In this document: piece after piece, positions 23,513 to 64,000 of the stretch
Layout: the number at the start of each line of letters is the position of its first letter
Position numbering within the stretch: the first letter of the stretch is position 1
From: Scenedesmus sp. PABB004
Taxonomy: Eukaryota
Reading direction: 5' to 3'
Assembly: GCA_014905635.1 (NCBI GenBank)
Contig: JABVCE010000005.1
Span: 1,302,001-1,366,000 of the forward strand
Length of the DNA stretch: 64,000 nucleotides
The notes under the pieces: generated by a model
Told to the model about the DNA's origin: nothing
Database searches by the model: none
What the model saw: only the letters and a program-made list of their open reading frames with translations
Made by a program: the position numbers and the translations under genes

Positions 23513-23597
23513 GCTGACCGCGGCTGCCTGAGCGGCAAGGCGGGTTGCGCGGGCCCGCGCCCGCAGTTGCAGTTGCGCCCCTGTTGCAACGACCGCC

Positions 23598-46527: not shown

Positions 46528-46641
46528 GTGATGCTGATGCAGTTCTGCGCATCCACGCGCTTGTCCTGCAGCAAACAGCAGTCGCAGCGCTTGCCCAGGA
46601 CAAGCGCGTGGAGGCGCAGAACTGCATCAGGACCACATCAC
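46528..46641. repeat. Inverted repeat / pre-miRNA-like hairpin
   Basis: Arm 46534..46568 is the reverse complement of 46596..46630 with one mismatch; GTGATG/CATCAC extends the base. Confidence 0.85.
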
Positions 46642-54357: not shown

Positions 54358-57300
54358 TTAGGCCTTGAGGTACTGGTCGAGCTTCTCCCCCGAGAGCGCC
54401 TCGAGCTGCGCGACGAGGCCCTGCGCCGCCGCCTCGACCGCGAGCTCGGGCTCCTCCAGCAGCTCCGCCACGTACGGCAGCGCCTCCGGCAGCAGCATCA
54501 GGTACTCCTCGCGCAGCAGCTCCGCGAGCCGCGAGACCGCGCCGAGCGCAAGCAGGCGCGGCCGCGGCCCGCCGGCGCCGCGGCTCGCGAGCAGCACGCC
54601 GTGGTGCAGCGGCTTCCACACCGCGTCGCTGCCGCTCGCAACCGCGAGCGCGTGCAGCGCGCCGAGCGCGGCCGCGCCGGCGGCGTCGCAGAGCGCCGCC
54701 GCGGCGTCGCCCGCGCCGGCCTCGGCCGCGGCGCGCCCCGCCGCGCCGAGCGGCGCGAGCGGGCCGCCCGGCGGGTCGAGCGCGGCGTCGGCGCCCTGCT
54801 CCGCGAGCGCCGCCGCGAGCGCGGCCGGCGGCGCGTCGCTCAGCATCTCCACGAGCAGCGGCAGCAGGCGCTCAAAGCGCTCCGCCTGCTCCTGCTGCGC
54901 CGCGGGGCCGTCGGGCGGCGGCTCGTGCAGCGCGAGCAGGTGCACCAACCGCGCCGCGCGCAGCCGAGCGAGCCAGCCGCACAGCGCCGCGGCGTCGCCG
55001 CCTGCGCCGCCGGCCGCCGCCTCGGGCGCGCCGCCGCCGCCGGCGGACGCGCGCTTGGCCTTCTTCTTCGGCCGCTTGCCGCCGCCCCCGCCGGCGAGCG
55101 CCTCGCCCGCGAGCTGCTGCATGAGCAGCACGCCGAGGTAGCGCTGGTACGGCACAAACACGCGGCGCAGGCGGTGCCCGAGCGCGACGCACGCGGCCAG
55201 GAACGCCGCGGCGCGCCCCGCCGCGCCCGGCGCGGCGCCGGCGCTGCTGCCGCTCGCGCCGCCCCCGGCGCCGGCCCAGTCCAGGAGGCGCAAGAAGAGT
55301 GGCTTGAAGCGCGACTCGCTGAGCTTCATCACCAGGCAGCACAGCGCCTCCACCGCGGCGCCCTCGACCGCCGCCACGGCGGCGCCGCCGAGGCGCGCGG
55401 CCGCGGCCGCCGCGGCGGCCGCGTCGGCGGCGGCGCCCGCGTCGCCCGCGGCGGCGGCGGCCGCCGCGGCGGCGCCGTCGTCGGCGCCGCCGACGGCGGC
55501 CGCGAGCCAGCGCTGGCGCGTGTCGAGCGCGCGCAGCAGCAGGCCGGCGAGGGGCTCGTGGTACGTCGCGGCGACGGCCGGCTCCATGCCGCGCGCGGCC
55601 GCGCCGACGAGCTCCAGCAGCGCGACCGCGGGCGCCGCGCTCGGCGGCCCGCCGCCGCCGCCGCCGCACGCCGCGAGCGCGGCGTCCCACGCGCCCACGA
55701 GCGGCTCGACCAGCAGGCGCGGCGGCACGCGCGCCGGCAGCGCGGCGCGCAGCCGCGCGGCCGTCGCGGCGCCGCCCGCGGTGCGGCAGTCGAGCACCGG
55801 CCGCTGCAGCAGCAGGCGCAGCAGGGGGCGCAGGTAGGGGCTAAGAAAGGGCCCCAGCCCCACCACCAGCGCCTCGAGCGCCGCGAGCGCGCCCGCGAGC
55901 TGCAGCGCCGCCTCCTGGCCGCGGCCGAACGCGCCGCCGTCGCGCGCGTCGCCGCCGTCGTCGTCGCTCGCCGCCTCTGCCGGCTGCTCCTCGGCCGCCG
56001 CCGCCGCCGCCGCGGCCGCGGCGTGGTCAAAGCCCTCGAGCTCGGCGGCGGCCGCCTGCGCGGCGCCGAGCGCCACCGCCGCGGCCTGGGGCAGCAGCGG
56101 CACGAGCCGCGTGCCCACCGCCGCGACGCACGACGCGAGGCAGGCGAGCGCGCTGACGCGCACGGGGCCCGACGGGTCGACCGCGCCGGCCAGCACGTGC
56201 GGCAGCGCGGCCAGCACCGCGCCCGGCGACGCGGCGCCAAACTGGCGCACGCCGGCGTCGGCCGCGACGAGCGCGAGCTGCCTCGTGAGCGGCGCGGGCG
56301 CGGCCAGCAGGCGCGGCAGCTCGCCCGCGACCGACAGCGCCGCGGCGCCGAGGCCAGCGACCGCGGCGGCGCGCTCCGCCGGCGGCGCGTCGGCGGCGCG
56401 CGCCTCGGCCGCCGCGACGTCCACCGCGGCGCGCGAGAGCCGCGCCGCGAGGAGCTTGAGCGCGCGGCGCTGCACGCTCGCGTCGTCGTGCCGGCTCATC
56501 TCCACGAGCGCGGCCAGGTAGCTGGGGCAGTCCTGCACCGCCTCCAGCGCGGACAGCAGGTCGTACACGCCCGCAGCGCCCGCGCGCATCGCGCGCTGCG
56601 CGCGGCGCGCGCCCTTGGCCGGCCCCGCGCCCGCCGGCGCGGCGCCGGCGGCGGCGCCGGGCGCGAGCTGCTGCAGGTGCGTCAGCGCCTGGCGCATGAT
56701 GCCGCGGCACGCCGCCTGCAGCGCCGGCGCGCCGGCGGGGTCGGCGGCCGCCGCGGCGGCACCGGCGGCGGCGACGACCGACTTGGCCTGCGGCGCCGGG
56801 CGGGGACGGGCGAGGGCGCACCGGCAGGGTGGGCTGCTGAGGCAGTGCGGGCTGGCCACATGCCACGCGACGCCCACAGCACGCACAGAACGCACACGCC
56901 ATCGCGCACGCAGCCGCGGCACCACGCGCGCGCGAGGGGGGGAGGGCAGGCCTCAGAGAAATCCGCTAATGTTTGTAATCAATGCCTGGGCGCGCCGCGC
57001 ACGGGCGCCCTCAGAATGTGTAACAATTTTGGAACATCACCGGCCGGGTCCCTCGCCGCGGGGGCACACGACAGCGCACGCGACACGCGACGACGCACGC
57101 CGCGCGCAGCAGGCAGGGCACGCTGGAGCAGCGCGTGCGGGAGCGGCCGGCGGCGCCTCACCTTGAGGTTGGCCGTGACCAGCGAGACCGCCAGCCGCGG
57201 CAGCGGCGCGTGCGCGCCGCCGCCGTCGGCCAGCGCCGCCTCGAGCACCGCGGCAAAGGCCGCCAGGCGCTGCGCCACGGGCACCTGCGGGCGGCGGCGG

Positions 57301-60300
57301 GCGCGGGCGGCGGCGTGTCAGCGCGCGGCCCCTGCGCGCTCGGCGGCGAGGGAGGGGCGAGGTAGGAAGGCGGCGGCGGCCTCAGAAACCGTAGTAATTC
57401 TGATGTAATTGAGCATCGTCACGGAGGATCGGACTGACGTGCAATTGGTTGTCATCCCCGGCCGCCGCCGCCGCCGCCGCCGCCGTCGCCTCGCAGCCGC
57501 GCCCGTGAGCCCGCGCACCCGCGTGCGCGCCGCACCTTTTCACACAGCGCGCCAATGAGGTCAGGCAGCCAGTCGGCCTCGGTCGCTGGCGCCGGCTCAC
57601 CGGGCGGCTCGGGCGCGGCCGCCGGCGCGGGCGCGCGGCGGCCCTTCCTGCCCGCCGGCGACCTGGCCGCGGCCTCCGCCGCCGGCGCGGCGGGCGCCGC
57701 CGCGGCGGCCACGACGCGCCGCATCATGATCAGGAGGCCCACGGGCAGCCCCGCCTCCTGCGCGGCGGGGCGGCGGGGACGGCGCGGCGGCGCGCGGGTC
57801 AAGAGGCGCGCCACGGGGCGGGCGAGGGGGAGGGCGGGGCAACGGCCCCGCTGCTGCTGCAGCTGCTGTCAGACAAATGCCTCGGTTGTCCTCACGCTCG
57901 CGGTGCGCTGGCAGCATGACGCTGCCAGCCCCCGCTCGGACTCGTCATCTGGTTTGTCATCACCCAGGCAGCACAGCACGCAGCACACAGCACAGCACAC
58001 GCAGCACACAGCACAGCACACGCAGCGCAGCACGCAGCCCACGCAGCACGCAGGAAGAGGAGCAGCACGCGGCGGCGCCAGCGTGCGCGCGCGCGCGCGG
58101 GCGGGGGCGTCGCTGTTGTCAGACAAATGCCTCGGTTGTCCTCACGGGGCCGGCGCCCGCCGGCATAACGCCGCCGGGGCCACGTCGGACTCGTCATCTA
58201 GTTGTGTCATCACCCAACGCCGCCGCCGCACACATTGCGCACACGCGGCCACACGCACACGTTGGAGCCGCGCGCGCGCGCGCCCGCCCCGTGCCCCCGC
58301 GCCCCGCCGCCAGCCGCGCGCACCTGCGGCAGCGCGCCCTGCAGCGCCTCCAGCAGCCGCAGCCGCCGCGGGCCGGGCAGGCCAGGCAGCGCGTCGATGA
58401 GCGCCGCCCACAGCTCCTCGCTGCGCCGCCCGCCGGCGAGCCAGGCGGGCACGAGCGCCGCGAGCGCGGCCGCGGCGACGGCCTGCGAGTGCGCGTCGGC
58501 CTGGAACGCGGCGGAGTGCTGGATGACGGCGAGTGCCTGCGGGGCGCGGTGCGGCGGCGGCGGCAGCAGGTTGGGCGCGCGGCGAAGGCAGGGCGCGAAG
58601 GGGGGGGGGGGCAGGGGCAGCAGGTGCGCGTCGCGCGCGGGGCGCGCGGGGAGCCTCATACAAAGGCACGTCTCTCAGTCACGGTGAATCAGCAACTGTG
58701 AAAGCATTCGTGGTTGTATAATCCCCGGCTCCCGCGCGCGCCCGCCGCCGCCGCCCCTGCCCCGTGCCGCGCCGCGCGCCGCCTCACCTGCAGCACGTAC
58801 TCCAGCACCCGCTCCGGCGCCGAGCGCGCAAGCACCGCGAGCAGCTGCAGCGCCGCGTTGCGCACCGCGCCGTCGGGCGCCGCGGACGCGGCCAACAGCA
58901 CGAGCCCCGCGTCGACGCCCGGCGGCGCGCCGGCCGCCTGCGCCTCCTGGGCCAGGGCGTCGAGCACCAGCAGCGCCAGCTGGGCGGCGTAGCCGGCCGC
59001 CGACGCCGACGCGGCGCCGGCACCGGCGGCGGGCTCGCCCTCCGCGTCCGCCGCCTCGCCGCCTGCGTCGCCGGCGTCGCCGCCGGGCTCGTCGTCGTCG
59101 CTGCCGCCGTGGCGCTCGGCGACGCTGCCCATGCGCGGCAGCAGCGCGCGCAGCAGCGCCTGCAGCGGCGCCGCGAGCGCGGCGCGGCCCGCCACGGCCT
59201 CCTTCCACTGCAGCAACTCGAGCGCCGCGGTCGCGGCGTCCAGGTCGGCCGCCGCGACGGGGCCGGCGGGCGCCGCGCCGCCGTCCACGTCCATGGCCTC
59301 GGCCTGGCTGCCGCTGCCGCTGGCGGCGCTGCTGGCGCGCCGCGCGCGCTTGGCCTTGGGCGCGGGCGTCGGCGGCGCGCCGCCCGCGGCGCCGCCGACA
59401 CGCGCGAGCAGCGGCAGCAGCATCCCCGCCGACACGGGCAGCCGCTCGAGCGCGGCGCGCGCGGCGGCGCGGCACGCGGCGTCGCCGTCGGTGGCGTGCG
59501 CCTGCAGCGCCGCCGCAAACGCGGCCTGGCCGTCGCCCCCGAGCGCCTCGAGCATCGCGGGGCCGAGCGCCGCGAGCGCCGCGGTGCGCGCGGGCGCGAC
59601 GGCGGCGAGCTGCGCCGCCGACAGCCGCCCGCCGCCCGGCGCTGCGGCGTCGAGCCCAACCGCCGCCGCGTCGAGCAGGGGCAGCTGCAGCAGCCCCAGG
59701 TAGCGCGCGGCCACGCCGGCGTCCGCGGCGACCGCCTCGGGCGAGGCAAAGCCGACGGCCGCGACCGCGAGGCCGCCGCGCAGCGCCTGCAGCGCGGCGC
59801 CGGCCTCCGCGGCGGCGTCGTCGCCCAGCGCCGCGGCGAGCGACTGCCACAGCGGCGCGTCGCCGCCGCGCGCGCCGTGGCCGCCCGCCGCCGCCCGCGC
59901 GTGCACCGCGAGGCCCAGCAGCAGCTCGCGCAGCAGCTGCTGCGCGGCCGCGGCGGCCGCGTCGCCGGCGCCGCCGCCGGCGCGCAGCACCGCGACCGCC
60001 AACTCGGCGCCCAGCAGCTGCGCGTCGCCGGCCAGCGCCGGCAGCGCCGCCAGCAGCAGCTGCTGCAGCGCGTGCGCGCACGCGGGCGGCAGCTGCACCT
60101 CAGCAACCGCGCCGGCCTCGGCGGCGGCGCCGCCGCCGTCGCTGGACAGACCGCGCGCGCCGCCGGTCTTGCTGCCCCGCCGCGGCGTCTTGGGCCGCGC
60201 GGCCGACGCGGCGCCGCCGCCGCCGCCGCCGCCCGCCGCAACGGCTGCGACCAGCAGCGGCGTCAGCGCGCCGTGTGCGTCGCGCAGCAGGGCCTCGTGC

Positions 60301-63300
60301 GGCTGCAGCGCGGCCGCGAGGGCTGCGAGGTGCTCCGCGCTGAAGCCGCCCGCGAGCGCCCAGCCGGGCGCGCCCGCGACGAGCCCGGGCAGCGCCAGCA
60401 GCGCGTCCACCGCCGCGCGACGCACGCGCTTGCTGGGGCTGTCCGCTGCGGCCAGCAGCGACACGAGCCACGCGCCGTCGCCGTCGGGCGCGGCGCGCGC
60501 GGCCGCCGGCGCCGCGTCGCCGGCCTGCCAGTGCAGCAGCTGCAGCGCCGCCGCCTGCACCGCCTCGCCGCACGCGGCGGGGGGCAGGCCGTACACGCCC
60601 GACAGGAACCGCAGCTGCTGCGCCGCGTCGGCCCCGCACTTGGCAACGAGCAGCCCGGCGTGCTCCAGCAGGCTCGGCTGCGCCGCCGCGACCGCCGCGA
60701 GGCGCGCAAACAGCGCGCCCGGGCGGCCGAGCAGCTCGCCGAGGCCCTCGGCGCTCGCGCGCGCCAGCGCGGTGCGCAGCCCCGCGAGCAGCAGCGCGCC
60801 GTGGAGCTCGGGCAGGGCGGCGTGCAGCTGCTGCAGGTGCTGCCGCGTCGGCAGCAGGTCGGCGTCGAGCGCCGCCGCGGCTGCGGCCGCCCAGTCGTCG
60901 GGCAGCTGCAGCCCGGCGGCGCCCGCGCGCCGCTTCTTGCCGCCCGCCGGCCCCAGCGCCTGCTCCAGCAGCGCCAGCAGCGCCGCGGCGACGCGCGCGG
61001 CGGTCGCCGCGGCGTCGCCGCTGCCCGCCTGGCTGCCCCCGGCCTGGCTGCTGCTGGCGCGGTGCTGCCGGCCGCGGCCGCGGCCGCGCGGCGAGTGCGG
61101 CGCGTCCGCGCCGTCCTCGTCCGCCGGCGACGCGGCCGCAGCGTGCACGAGCGCCAGCAGCAGCAGGTGCCGGCAGCGCGGCCCGCAGTCCGCCGCGACC
61201 GCCGCCAGCTCCGACGCCAGCGCGCCGGTGAGGCCGTCGGACAGCGCCCGCACGACGGCGCGGTTGAGCGCGACCGCGGCGGCGTGCTTGTCGCCCGCCG
61301 CCGCGTCGCCCGCCGCCGCGTCGGCGGCGCCGCTGCCCTTGGCGCCCTTCTTGCGCCGCTTGCCGTTCGAGCCGGGCGCCTCGGCGGCGGCGGCAGCGGC
61401 GGCGGCGCCGCCGCCAGCCTCGAGCGCAGCCGCCACGCCTGGCGCGGCCGCGAGCGCCGCGAGCAGTGGGTGCCACTCGGCGGCGCCCGCGACGGCGACC
61501 GCGGCGCGCGCGAGGCGCTTGAGCCGCCTGTCGCCGAGGCAGTGCTCGAGCAGCAGCGCCGCGGCGCCGCGCGCCACGCGCGCCGCCGCGGCCTGCGCCT
61601 CGCTGTCGGCCGCGGCCACCGCGGCCGCCGCGGCGCACTCGCCGACGGCCGCCACGGCCGCCAGCCCCGCCTTGGCCGCCGCAAGCGCCTGCTTGCCGCC
61701 GCCGGCCGGCTCGCCCTCGCCGCCGTGGCCGGCCGCGAGCGCGGACGCCGCGCGCGACAGCAGGGCGGTCAGGCCCGCCAGCGCCGCGTCGGGCGGCACG
61801 GACGCGAGCCCCGCCGCCGAGGCGGCGGTCGCGGCGACCTCGAGCGCCTCGTCGTGCAGGCACGATGCGAGGCTCGCCGCCAGCAGCTCGCGCGTCGACG
61901 CCGGCGCGTCGGGCTCGGCGCACGCCGCGTCGAGCTTGCGCAGCGCCATCGCGCGCACGCCGCTCGCCGGCGCGGCGACCGCGAGCGACAGCGTCAGCGC
62001 GGCGCCGCCGCCGCCGCCCGCCTCGCTGCCGCCGTCGCCCGCCGACAGCACCTCGTGCCGGCTGCCGCTGAAGCAGGCCTGCACGTAGGTGAACAGCGCG
62101 TCCGCGCCGCCGCGCTGCGCCTTGGCACCGCCCTTGGCCGCCTTGCCGCGCCGACCGCCGCCCGGCGCGGGGGCCTCGGCGGCGCCCGCGTCGCGCAGCG
62201 CCGCGTTGATCGCCGCGTCGAGCTGGTCAGGGAAGCGCAGGTCAAGCGCGCGCAGCGCCTCGCCCACGTGCGGCGCCGCGGTGCCGCCCTGCGCCGCGTG
62301 CGCCGCCGCGCCGGCGCGCAGCAGGCCGGCCGCCGCGCCCTGCACGAGCGCTGGGTCCAGGTCCAGGTGGCGCAGCAGCGCCAGCAGCAGCGGCAGCAGC
62401 GCCGGCTGCCCCGGCAGCGCCGCCGCGAGCGACGGCAGCAGCAGGGACATCAGTGGGCCGAGCTTGGCGCCGCGCGCCTGCAGGTCCGCCAGCTGCTGCC
62501 CCACGCCCTCCTGCGCGGCCAGCAGCTGCGCGCGCGGCGGCGCGCGCCGGCGGCGGGCGGCGCGGGCGCGCGGGCGGGCGGGGCGGGCGGCGCGGCTCAG
62601 CAGGCGAGGGCGCTGCTGAGGTGCGTATGTGAAGAGTGAAGAGTGAGTGAGTGGAGGGAGGGGGTGTCGCATGCTGGGTAAGACCCACGAGGTAACTGCC
62701 CCGACGGGGCTCCCCAAGGTGATGGAATCAGCAGTCGCGGGCGCGCGGGAACCCCGCGGGCGGGGCTCGACCGCGCGCCGTCGCTCTCGGGTGTTCACTT
62801 GAGGACTGTGCACCCACGGGGGGCGGCCGGCTGGCCGGGTGCTCCTGGTCAACGGCCCGCAGGCGCCCGGCTAAAGGCGCCCGCGGGCCCACCCTCGGTG
62901 CAGTGCAGGTGCGGCCGCGTGCAGGGAGGTGTGGGGGGGGGGGGGGTGCAGCACGCGGCGCGGCGGGCCCCGCACCTGCAGCGCGCGGAGAGGCAGGGCC
63001 GTCAGGTGGGGCTGGCTGGCGGCGAGGTGGGCCAGCAGCATCAGCCCGGTCGTGCCGCCCAGGTCGGGTGCTCCCCGTACGACCTCAACGATCACCACTG
63101 CGGCGCGGGGCGGGGTGAGGGGGGGGGGGGGGTGTTGGGGTGGGCGGCGCAGAGCCGCGCGCTTTCATCCACGCAGGCGCCCGGCGCGGCGCCGCTGCTG
63201 CTGCTGTGCTGCCGCTGTGTGGCGCCTCAGGGAATACAAACTGAGGCACCCAGCGGGCGCGCGTGGCGCCCGAGTCGCGATGCATTTTCTCGTCACCGGC

Positions 63301-63362
63301 GCCACACAGCAGCAAGCCCCCGCTGGTGGCAGCCCCGCCGCTGCTGCTGCTGCTGCTGCCGC

Positions 63363-63405
<43 letters not shown>

Positions 63406-63727
63406 CCCCCCCTCTGCCGCCGCCGCCGCCCCGCCGGCGCACCTGCCAGGAAGTCTGTCGCGAGCTGCGCACGGCGCAGCAGCGACGTGAGGCCCATGAG
63501 CGTCGCCGCGCGGTAGTCGCGCGGCGCGTCGGCACGCAGCCCCGACACGAGGAAGGGCAGCAGCAGGCCCAGCAGGCCCTCGCCCACGGACGGCGCGGTC
63601 GCAAAGAGCTCGGAGAGCAGCACGCCATAGAAGCTGAGGTAGGTCTTGGACACAAACCCCGGCTCCCCGAGCGCCTGCGCGCCGCGGCACACCTCGCGCA
63701 GCACGGCCTGCGGCGGCGCGCGCGCCA

Positions 63728-63761
<34 letters not shown>

Positions 63762-64000
63762 GTCAGCGGCTGCCGGCCACCGGCTGCCGGCCGCCGGCTC
63801 GGCGGCGCGGGCGCGCGCGGCGCCGCACCTCGTCGTTCGCGCAGCGCAGCACGAGCAGCTCGCGCGGCGGCGGCGCGCCGCTCGTCTGCGCCGGCTCCAG
63901 CCACGCCCAGGGCGTGCCCTTGAGCTGCAGCAGCGCCACGAGGCGCGCAAACTCGGGCGTCGCGTGGTAGGGCAGCGCGCAGAGCAGCAGGTCGCCGACG
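54358..64000 (-). CDS. UTP10: U3 snoRNA-associated protein 10 / HEATR1 (5' part outside window)
   Basis: ALPYHATPEFARLV, DYRAATLM, BP28CT-like LVMKLSESRFKPLFLRLLDWA, C-terminal EEYLMLLPEALPYVAELLEE...LEALSGEKLDQYL. Confidence 0.92.
56949..57045 (-). ncRNA. Intronic box C/D snoRNA, double guide to LSU rRNA (snoR22-like)
   Basis: Box C GTGATGT (57040-34), D' CTGA (57014-11), D CTGA (56956-53); guides antisense to UGUGUAACAA and GAAAUCCGCUAA. Confidence 0.85.
57375..57466 (-). ncRNA. Intronic box C/D snoRNA guiding SSU and LSU sites (snR72-like D' guide)
   Basis: C GGGATGA, D' CCGA, C' GTGACGA, D CTGA, GGCGGCC/GGCCGCC stem; guides antisense to ACUGACGUGCAA (LSU) and AACCGUAGUAAUUCU (SSU). Confidence 0.85.
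57866..57967 (-). ncRNA. Intronic box C/D snoRNA U15-like, copy a
   Basis: C GTGATGA, D' CCGA, C' GTGAGGA, D CTGA; guides antisense to LSU CUCGUCAUCU and CAAAUGCCUCG. Confidence 0.88.
58114..58219 (-). ncRNA. Intronic box C/D snoRNA U15-like, copy b
   Basis: Same boxes and guides as copy a with a different internal spacer. Confidence 0.88.
58649..58733 (-). ncRNA. Intronic box C/D snoRNA candidate with degenerate boxes
   Basis: GGGAGCC/GGCTCCC stem, C-like GGGATTA, D' CTGA, C'-like GTGACTGA, D-like ATGA; D' guide antisense to AACUGUGAAAGCAU. Confidence 0.65.
62662..62740 (-). ncRNA. Intronic H/ACA-like hairpin snoRNA candidate
   Basis: TGCTG/CAGCA lower stem, pocket ATTCC + TTACC, ACA 14 nt downstream of the pocket top. 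Confidence 0.5.
63214..63310 (-). ncRNA. Intronic box C/D snoRNA candidate
   Basis: 13-bp perfect terminal stem, C GTGACGA (63296-90), D CTGA (63230-27); D guide antisense to GAAUACAAACUG. Confidence 0.75.

Follow-up and report, generated by a model that had tools for sequence, protein, structure and literature searches.

The host gene and its introns

The window, by which we mean the whole 64,000-nt stretch of DNA that was analysed, has a GC content of 79.6% and carries the 3' part of a large gene on its minus strand.

54358..63999, minus strand: host gene, UTP10/HEATR1 orthologue by domain content; 3' part in the window, first 127 codons past the window end
63999-63829, 63707-63443, 63097-62976 and 62525-58788, minus strand: host exons 1-4 in view
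58536-58324, 57757-57536, 57284-57162 and 56787-54358 (ending at the stop codon), minus strand: host exons 5-8 in view

The spliced frame of this exon model is open over 2427 aa and agrees residue for residue with positions 128-2554 of the database protein P0001, which places all the elements described below in introns of one gene and on its own (minus) strand, as had been predicted. In a Pfam search, the last exon matched BP28CT (PF08146) at 55.6 bits, the cut-off being 27. Precomputed annotation of P0001 (2554 aa) contains both PF12397 (U3snoRNP10) and PF08146, a pair that is also precomputed for 21 algal relatives of the protein; among named relatives, a Scenedesmus sp. protein comes closest, at 58% identity. 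BP28CT and U3snoRNP10 therefore occur together in a HEAT-repeat protein of the size expected for the HEATR1 type (2000-2600 aa). On this domain evidence the host is the UTP10/HEATR1 orthologue, as the original prediction held. In a literature search for HEATR1 as a snoRNA host, HEATR1 was absent from every match listed.

AT-richer islands, defined as 70-nt windows with a GC content of 0.60 or less, number 27 across the window. Those in the introns named by the original prediction lie at 56947-57046, 57343-57472, 57934-58022, 58637-58746 and 62606-62704, and the remaining islands resemble exons or UTRs. The claim that each element sits in such an island thus stands for those at 56.9, 57.4, 57.9, 58.7 and 62.7 kb, but the elements at 58.1 and 63.2 kb are just mildly AT-richer (GC about 0.67-0.71 in 100-nt windows). 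No snoRNA lies in the first intron in view, a short one at 63828-63708.

Box C/D anatomy and rRNA complementarity

Introns 2 to 7 contain six predicted box C/D snoRNAs, here called A, C, D1, D2, E and F, and one further element, B.

63209..63315, minus strand: snoRNA A, intron 2; C box GUGACGA 63296-63290, D box CUGA 63230-63227
63315-63298 / 63226-63209, minus strand: terminal stem of snoRNA A, 18 bp
62660..62745, minus strand: element B, 'ACA-ended hairpin', intron 3; unsupported as a snoRNA
58649..58733, minus strand: snoRNA C, intron 4; variant C box GGGAUUA 58725-58719, variant D box AUGA 58659-58656
58692-58689 and 58682-58675, minus strand: internal boxes of snoRNA C, D' CUGA and C' GUGACUGA
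58733-58727 / 58655-58649, minus strand: terminal stem of snoRNA C, 7 bp
58115..58218, minus strand: snoRNA D1, U15-type, intron 5; C box GUGAUGA 58213-58207, D box CUGA 58122-58119, 4-bp stem
58188-58185 and 58145-58139, minus strand: internal boxes of snoRNA D1, D' CCGA and C' GUGAGGA
57866..57967, minus strand: snoRNA D2, D1 paralogue, intron 5; C box 57963-57957, D box 57872-57869, 3-bp stem
57939-57936 and 57895-57889, minus strand: internal boxes of snoRNA D2, D' CCGA and C'
57369..57472, minus strand: snoRNA E, intron 6; C box GGGAUGA 57458-57452, D box CUGA 57385-57382, 13-bp stem
57432-57429 and 57422-57416, minus strand: internal boxes of snoRNA E, D' CCGA and C' GUGACGA
56949..57045, minus strand: snoRNA F, intron 7; C box GUGAUGU 57040-57034, D box CUGA 56956-56953, 4-bp stem
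57014-57011 and 56981-56976, minus strand: internal boxes of snoRNA F, D' CUGA and C' UGAUUA

The six snoRNAs are wholly intronic and on the host sense strand, with 58-355 nt between them and the 5' splice site and 92-356 nt on the 3' side. They share one layout, in which the terminal stem is followed by a 1-nt gap and the C box, and the D box lies directly against the stem. The stems measure 18 bp in A, 7 in C, 4 in D1, 3 in D2, 13 in E and 4 in F, so that C/D boxes and terminal stems (3-18 bp, in one register) are present in all six elements for which they had been proposed. The C boxes depart from RUGAUGA by 0-2 mismatches and the D box is CUGA in five of the six; in C it is AUGA. The G to U change at C-box position 6 of snoRNA C is compensated by a C to A change at D-box position 1, and the pair is kept; the fold of this element has z = -2.48.

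A box-and-stem scan of both strands of the whole window returned seven matches. Four were in host introns on the minus strand, where 0.08 were expected, and the null of 100 block shuffles gave a maximum of two matches in host introns. D2 and C were missed by the scan because the D2 stem has only 3 bp and the boxes of C are variant. The three matches outside the host are weak and GC-rich, and were rejected as snoRNAs in favour of chance. At the gathering score, Rfam gave no match anywhere in the window, rRNA included, and none of the six elements reaches threshold. In permissive scans, E and F had no score near threshold, and snoZ188, snoR117, snoR122 and snoR66 appeared at 16-18 bits and were not relied on; the sole family with any weight was SNOR75.

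For the rRNA targets we used a stand-in, a green-alga rDNA unit on a metagenome contig (L109), together with Arabidopsis tables, in place of the organism's own rRNA. L109 was the only metagenome locus with a complete rDNA unit, L125 and L149 being incomplete. A contig scan with the 15-nt target of the E D guide returned mostly chance bacterial matches and 13 plant 18S contaminant fragments, and a search for plant 25S in three assemblies from that scan met bacterial 23S-like matches only. L109 positions were carried over to Arabidopsis 25S with offsets of +170, +174, +176 and +177 plus local sequence context. In the 3' half of 25S, 13/13 (+176) and 14/15 known sites fitted. Such mapping is unreliable on few sites and was used where 7/7, 13/13 or 14/15 fitted and the local context agreed. 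Assignments to U18 and U38 by yeast numbering were ruled out by the Arabidopsis per-nucleotide table.

Complementarity to rRNA was found for 10 of the 12 guide positions, nine on L109 and the A D guide on Arabidopsis 25S, and in these guides the target nucleotide pairs with the fifth nucleotide upstream of D or D'. On L109, the nine guides form 10-15 uninterrupted bp in the correct register. The number of shuffles (out of 300) that equalled the guide was 0 for E-D and C-D', 2 for E-D', 5 for F-D, 8 for F-D', 9 for D1-D' and D2-D, 11 for D1-D and 20 for D2-D'. Antisense rRNA matches of at least 11 nt as a whole showed no excess over shuffles apart from those next to boxes (101 against a mean of 96.6). 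Eight such matches were followed by CTGA or CCGA within 0-2 nt, where shuffles of the whole window averaged 2.04 and never exceeded 6, and seven of the eight lie on the minus strand in host introns. The other is a single GC-rich match of 11 nt followed by CTGA on the plus strand; together with the three weak box-and-stem matches it is all that the scans yielded outside the host, in agreement with the claim that other introns of the window lack such elements.

The two snoRNAs of intron 5 resemble U15. Against SNOR75 (RF02539), D1 reaches 32.8 bits (E 0.0016) with a full-length match and D2 28.0 bits. Both fall short of the gathering score of 50, a loss due to a GC-rich hairpin that replaces the plant spacer and exceeds it by about 20 nt. 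In an alignment of D1 with D2, boxes and guides are nearly invariant, and the central spacer and flanks have diverged, which we take as a sign of selection. The D guide of D1 is directed at L109 A2106 (Arabidopsis Am2282) and the D' guide at G2113 (Gm2289). In both copies D addresses an A and D' a G seven nucleotides downstream (offset +176), the arrangement of U15. Since the matches are full-length with the guide blocks kept, we term D1 and D2 U15-type by function and guide identity, though their scores do not make them members of the Rfam family.

In snoRNA E, the D guide forms 15 perfect bp with L109 18S 143-157 (target C146, the equivalent of Arabidopsis C148) and the D' guide 12 bp with L109 25S 711-722 (target A715, the equivalent of Am885). 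Both guides of snoRNA F form 12 bp with L109 25S, the D guide at 1086-1097 (target A1089, Arabidopsis Am1263) and the D' guide at 1100-1111 (target U1104, Um1278).

The D guide of snoRNA A, which ends 3' in ...CAGUUUGUAUUCC, forms 10 contiguous pairs with Arabidopsis 25S, worked by hand, with Um2736 at position 5. It has no significant match on L109 (191/300 shuffles as good), and L109 differs at that variable spot. Putative D' guides of A (boxes CUCG or GCGA) have no target in L109 rRNA, U2 or 5S. The D' guide of snoRNA C forms 14 bp, including 2 G.U, with L109 25S 2563-2576 (target U2566, the equivalent of Arabidopsis C2743); its D guide has no target in L109 rRNA, U2 or 5S (169/300 shuffles as good). 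From the overlap of the A and C guides we expect that the organism's rDNA would contain the 25S stretch GGAAUACAAACUGUGAAAGC. The C D' guide also pairs with 18S 929-946 (18 positions, one mismatch), and the target of snoRNA C is ambiguous between 25S and 18S.

In Arabidopsis numbering, the predicted targets are 25S A885, A1263, U1278, A2282, G2289 and U2736 and 18S C148, and a further one may be position 2743 of 25S or else a U near 973 in 18S. Arabidopsis methylates the six named 25S nucleotides, which are six of the seven predictions in 25S, and leaves 18S C148 and 25S C2743 unmethylated. 25S has 77 Nm sites over about 3375 nt, and on that basis we estimate the chance of six coincidences in seven at about 1e-9.

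Relation to plant and algal snoRNAs

The closest known system for D1 and D2 is plant U15 (RF02539), with human SNORD15 and yeast snR13/snR75. Arabidopsis U15 addresses A2282 with D and G2289 with D' (PMC8053127); the guide strings of U15a are identical to those of D1, and its D' box is CCGA, as in D1 and D2. Ostreococcus Ot-CDsno42 has the same target pair. Plant U15 genes stand in polycistronic clusters, whereas D1 and D2 are intronic in a protein-coding gene. Both antisense elements of Arabidopsis snoR22 (Am1263 and Um1278) recur in F, with the sites 15 nt apart in each, but the land-plant order (the A1263 guide at D' and the U1278 guide at D) is reversed in F and in its Chlamydomonas counterpart CrCD76. 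The D guide of Arabidopsis snoR72Y (25S Am885) is the D' guide of E, which pairs it with an 18S guide that Arabidopsis lacks. Among the plant snoRNA catalogue entries covered, snoRNA C has no counterpart.

The Chlamydomonas snoRNAs concerned were reportedly first described by Chen et al. in 2008, in a paper whose title is said to report intronic snoRNA clusters. The supplement of PMC5122169 places CrCD49, CrCD75, CrCD51 and CrCD76 of Chlamydomonas reinhardtii on scaffold DS496127, with CrCD49, CrCD51 and CrCD76 on one strand at 911952, 918169 and 918681. Their order is that of the matching A, E and F at 63.3, 57.46 and 57.05 kb, and the spacing is 6.2 + 0.5 kb there and 5.9 + 0.4 kb here. In the catalogued sequences, the D guide of CrCD49-1 is identical to that of A over 13 nt, its 5' half being unlike A. 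CrCD51-1 has both E guides at the same D' and D positions, with a D' box CUUA in place of CCGA, and the two F guides recur in CrCD76-1 with their order unchanged, its start being similar too (GGCCG.UGAUGUU). The slot of CrCD75 is occupied here by the unsupported element B only, and the U15-type pair has no Chlamydomonas counterpart among the catalogue entries covered. The Chlamydomonas series is compared here by its catalogue positions, and a UTP10 host for it would be conjectural.

In Ostreococcus tauri, introns house 72 of the 131 snoRNAs, ribosome-biogenesis genes make up a third of the hosts, and some hosts have two or three snoRNAs in consecutive introns; UTP10 and HEAT do not occur among the host names. 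Intronic snoRNAs of O. tauri and animals are host-oriented as here, with one snoRNA per intron. Hosts that act in ribosome biogenesis are a further feature in common with the present gene, which differs in holding six snoRNAs, with two in one intron.

Alternative readings and significance

Taken together, these data make it very probable that UTP10/HEATR1 of this very GC-rich chlorophycean alga hosts six box C/D snoRNAs of five kinds in five neighbouring introns. There is one each in introns 2, 4, 6 and 7, and intron 5 holds the two U15-type copies, which count as one kind because they are paralogous and have the same guides. The idea that the gene hosts several snoRNAs, with their guides oriented as the host is, is upheld by six C/D elements and the rRNA complementarity of 10 of their 12 guides. 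Its numbers need to be lowered: at least seven guides in six consecutive introns had been proposed, and we find six C/D snoRNA genes in five of those six introns, since element B is unsupported.

Element B, at 62.7 kb, had been put forward as the seventh member, an ACA-ended hairpin. We rejected it as an H/ACA snoRNA: the 450-nt intron 3 has no ANANNA motif and hence no H box, the 86-nt hairpin folds with z = 0.06 (105/200 shuffles fold equally well or better) and the AT-richer part of the intron has no exact antisense rRNA match of at least 10 nt. As far as can be seen, it is no functional guide. It is unlikely, though it would raise the guides to seven, that intron 3 nevertheless holds a functional RNA, be it an ACA RNA with a single hairpin or a C/D RNA that has diverged from a CrCD75-like gene. 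In the catalogue, the C/D snoRNA CrCD75-1 (913341) lies between CrCD49 and CrCD51, in the slot of element B, and by eye the two have short strings in common around the C box and D guide, a weak and unaligned likeness. Element B lacks a canonical C or D box, and the fold of a wider 146-nt stretch around it (z = -2.98 against shuffles) is due to GC-rich palindromes.

The six elements might be decayed or silent copies in which boxes and guides are recognisable, with no stable RNA produced and working copies elsewhere in the genome; the 3-bp stem of D2, the variant boxes of C and the one-mismatch C boxes of A and F would fit this, and intron 3 possibly holds such a relic. We consider this very unlikely, given that nine guides keep their pairing in register and a tenth does so with Arabidopsis 25S, that what D1 and D2 have conserved amid diverged surroundings is precisely their boxes and guides, and that the guides of the catalogued Chlamydomonas counterparts survive in A, E and F. 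Moreover, neutral decay at 80% GC should erase AT-richer guides. An origin of the box-like motifs by chance, in AT-richer intron islands with a role in splicing or with none, is exceedingly improbable; in our view the data on guides and targets have refuted it already. Such islands are indeed not rare in the window, and generic 11-nt rRNA matches are no commoner than in shuffles. Chance would not account for boxes with stems and in-register guides in one gene and one orientation, for the coincidence with six known Nm sites or for identical guides in published plant and algal snoRNAs.

If the six elements are active snoRNA genes, their RNAs would be produced from the host pre-mRNA, by analogy with other intron-encoded C/D snoRNAs. 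Splicing and debranching would release them, and the intron with two snoRNAs would probably require endonucleolytic cuts. Exonucleases would then trim the intron to the particle that Snu13/15.5K, Nop56, Nop58 and fibrillarin are presumed to form on the C/D kink-turn, and the mature RNAs, of about 80-105 nt, would direct methylation of their targets by fibrillarin.

The arrangement itself is ordinary, in that three of the kinds (A, E and F) already have counterparts in the Chlamydomonas catalogue. A broader, tentative reading, to which we give somewhat less than an even chance, joins three parts: UTP10 and its snoRNA set would have formed a syntenic unit, in the same introns, since a Chlamydomonadales/Scenedesmus-like ancestor; the 18S methylation at the C148 equivalent would be specific to chlorophycean algae; and intron 3 would have outlasted a decayed CrCD75-like snoRNA. 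If it is true, guides would seem to have been shuffled, or assembled independently, within one snoRNA family, given that algae and land plants carry the two snoR22-type guides in opposite order.

A published homology search found almost no algal counterparts of land-plant snoRNAs; comparison at the level of guides yields algal counterparts of land-plant U15, snoR22 and snoR72Y. In a genome of 80% GC, snoRNA genes of this kind show up as AT-richer islands. Where protein annotation shows introns only, the locus would provide six RNA genes with box coordinates and predicted targets.

The host gene and its intronic elements

On the minus strand of the window (79.6% GC), a reading frame runs from 63999 to a stop at 54358 in eight exons separated by GT-AG introns. 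Its 2427 open codons correspond letter for letter to residues 128–2554 of P0001, a database protein encoded at this locus, and the last exon carries a BP28CT domain (55.6 bits; cut-off, 27). U3snoRNP10 and/or BP28CT occur in P0001 and in 21 related green-algal proteins. Among named relatives, a Scenedesmus species protein comes first (58% identity) and Chlamydomonadales next. The frame, the domain and these relatives identify the host as the UTP10/HEATR1 orthologue of a chlorophycean alga, as originally predicted.

Introns named in the original prediction (all minus strand), with their box C/D elements
Intron 2, 63442–63098: A (63209–63315); 18-bp stem; C box GUGACGA; D box CUGA
Intron 3, 62975–62526: proposed ACA-ended hairpin, B
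Intron 4, 58787–58537: C (58649–58733); 7-bp stem; GGGAUUA; AUGA
Intron 5, 58323–57758: D1 (58115–58218), 4-bp stem, and D2 (57866–57967), 3-bp stem; both GUGAUGA; CUGA
Intron 6, 57535–57285: E (57369–57472); 13-bp stem; GGGAUGA; CUGA
Intron 7, 57161–56788: F (56949–57045); 4-bp stem; GUGAUGU; CUGA

The six host-strand elements share a common layout: a stem, one unpaired nucleotide, box C, a guide, D', a spacer, C', a guide, box D and the stem arm without a gap. Their GC content is 52–68%, against 77–88% in the rest of their introns. Element C reads with an unusual U at C-box position 6 opposite an unusual A at D-box position 1, so the pairing by which a kink-turn is usually closed is preserved. 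Alignment of D1 with D2 shows nearly invariant C-to-D' and C'-to-D blocks and diverged flanks and central spacers, each spacer folding its own GC-rich hairpin. Just upstream of A, intron 2 carries a (GCT)n tract (21.7 copies; 63340–63404), and in intron 5 an imperfect CAGCA/CACG-rich tandem array (57968–58053) separates D1 and D2.

A box-and-stem scan of both strands of the window returned seven matches, four of them on the minus strand inside the named host introns, where block shuffles gave an expectation of 0.08 and a maximum of 2 in 100; D2 and C fell outside the scan criteria and so are uncounted among the seven. A weak box/stem match (46641–46518) falls on a 41-nt inverted repeat (46528–46568 and 46596–46636; arms 93% complementary, 27 nt apart), a long hairpin on either strand within an AT-richer island. 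Rfam gave no match across the window at gathering score; at permissive thresholds, D1 (32.8 bits) and D2 (28.0 bits) matched the whole model of SNOR75, plant U15, whose gathering score is 50. The snoR122 model aligned with E at 57395–57463 (18.2 bits, E-value 1.9) via a CAAUUGCACGU string that both have in the 5' guide; a related antisense element may therefore occur in another plant family.

Guide pairing and predicted targets

Read on the plus strand, the D guide of E matched plant 18S fragments contaminating bacterial assemblies; a longer string from one fragment then retrieved metagenome contigs, among them L109, whose rDNA unit is green-alga-like and complete, with 18S, 5.8S and 25S (3145 nt for the 25S). 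Guide–target tests were made on this stand-in metagenome rDNA. Along L109:1-8065, the unit is followed within 2.3 kb by a 5S rRNA, a U2 snRNA and 14 tRNA matches, a very compact RNA-gene block in a green-alga-like eukaryote. The short contigs of bacterial assemblies (L026, L010, L073, L035, L059, L074, L089, L092, L094, L096) carry land-plant 18S fragments and are therefore contamination there.

The window has 101 antisense matches of at least 11 nt to L109 rRNA, about the number expected from shuffles (mean 96.6). Eight of them run into CUGA or CCGA after no more than two nucleotides (shuffle mean 2.04, maximum 6), and seven of these eight lie on the minus strand inside the named host introns. 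The only one outside the host gene, an 11-nt GC-rich match to 18S 556–566 on the plus strand with CTGA directly after (23517–23531), has no C box or stem nearby and is probably due to chance. Under the fifth-nucleotide rule, nine guides formed duplexes of 10–18 positions, equalled by 0 to 20 of 300 shuffled guides. The D guides of A and C had no significant match on L109 (191 and 169 of 300 shuffles, respectively, were as good); A's pairs with Arabidopsis 25S over 10 contiguous positions, with Um2736 at position 5.

Predicted targets, with Arabidopsis equivalents
D1, D2 D guide: L109 25S A2106; Am2282; U15
D1, D2 D' guide: L109 25S G2113; Gm2289; U15
E D' guide: L109 25S A715; Am885; SnoR72Y
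F D guide: L109 25S A1089; Am1263; SnoR22
F D' guide: L109 25S U1104; Um1278; SnoR22
A D guide: no L109 match, G at that spot; Um2736; SnoR68
E D guide: L109 18S C146; C148, unmethylated in Arabidopsis
C D' guide: L109 25S U2566, or an 18S U; C2743, unmethylated in Arabidopsis

Sites were mapped via Arabidopsis tables (PMC8583080, Table 1; PMC8053127, Table 1 and per-nucleotide Table S4). Arabidopsis numbering equals L109 plus 170 around 803–945 (7/7 known sites fit), plus 174 at A1143 from sequence context, plus 176 for 2282–2430 (13/13) and plus 177 for 2790–2960 (14/15). Six of the seven predicted 25S sites are experimentally methylated in Arabidopsis, an agreement for which chance is negligible given 77 methylated sites in ~3375 nt. 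The D/D' assignment of D1 and D2 is exactly that described for Arabidopsis U15 (PMC8053127).

Algal relatives and the intron-3 candidate

Among plant and Chlamydomonas snoRNA sequences printed in the PMC5122169 supplement, guide strings of D1/D2, F and E recur in Arabidopsis U15a, snoR22a and snoR72Y, respectively. CrCD49-1 of Chlamydomonas contains A's D guide, CrCD51-1 both E guides and CrCD76-1 both F guides in the same order; neither a counterpart of C nor an algal U15 appeared among the entries examined. CrCD49-1, CrCD75-1, CrCD51-1 and CrCD76-1 lie on one strand of one scaffold (911952, 913341, 918169 and 918681), mirroring A, the intron-3 slot, E and F at 63.3, 62.7, 57.46 and 57.05 kb. 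These entries suggest that in Chlamydomonas, too, the UTP10 orthologue carries this set. F and CrCD76 carry the snoR22 antisense elements in the opposite order to all land-plant copies shown there, the Am1263 guide being at D in the algae and D' in land plants.

The seventh proposed guide did not hold up. Shuffles fold as well as the hairpin at 62745–62660 (z = 0.06), intron 3 as a whole lacks an H box, and the AT-richer part of the intron gave no antisense match of at least 10 nt to rRNA. A wider stretch folds more strongly (z = −2.98) because of GC-rich palindromes. By eye, B shares short strings with the printed CrCD75-1, which occupies the equivalent slot, so B is possibly a decayed snoRNA relic.

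Processing and significance

The analysis shows where the six elements lie and in which orientation, along with their boxes, their stems, the register of their guides and, on the stand-in and Arabidopsis rRNA, the identity of their targets. The main line of the original prediction, a multi-snoRNA host, is correct and the six C/D elements are real, but its six consecutive introns and at least seven guides were one intron and one element too many. By analogy with known intron-encoded C/D snoRNAs, each would be produced from the spliced host intron, exonucleases trimming it back as far as the particle that forms on the kink-turn; the intron with two snoRNAs would need either an additional endonucleolytic cut or a different processing route. 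Fibrillarin would then catalyse 2'-O-methylation at the predicted targets.

Arrangements of this kind have been described before. In Ostreococcus 72 snoRNAs are intronic; a third of these sit in hosts that act in ribosome biogenesis, and as many as three occupy consecutive introns. Chen et al., in the title of a 2008 paper, reportedly describe intronic snoRNA clusters in Chlamydomonas. What is new is confined to new members, a synteny with Chlamydomonas that, judged from the supplement entries, is probably conserved, one 18S site (that of E's D guide) that is likely chlorophycean-specific, and the reversed order of snoR22-type guides relative to land plants.
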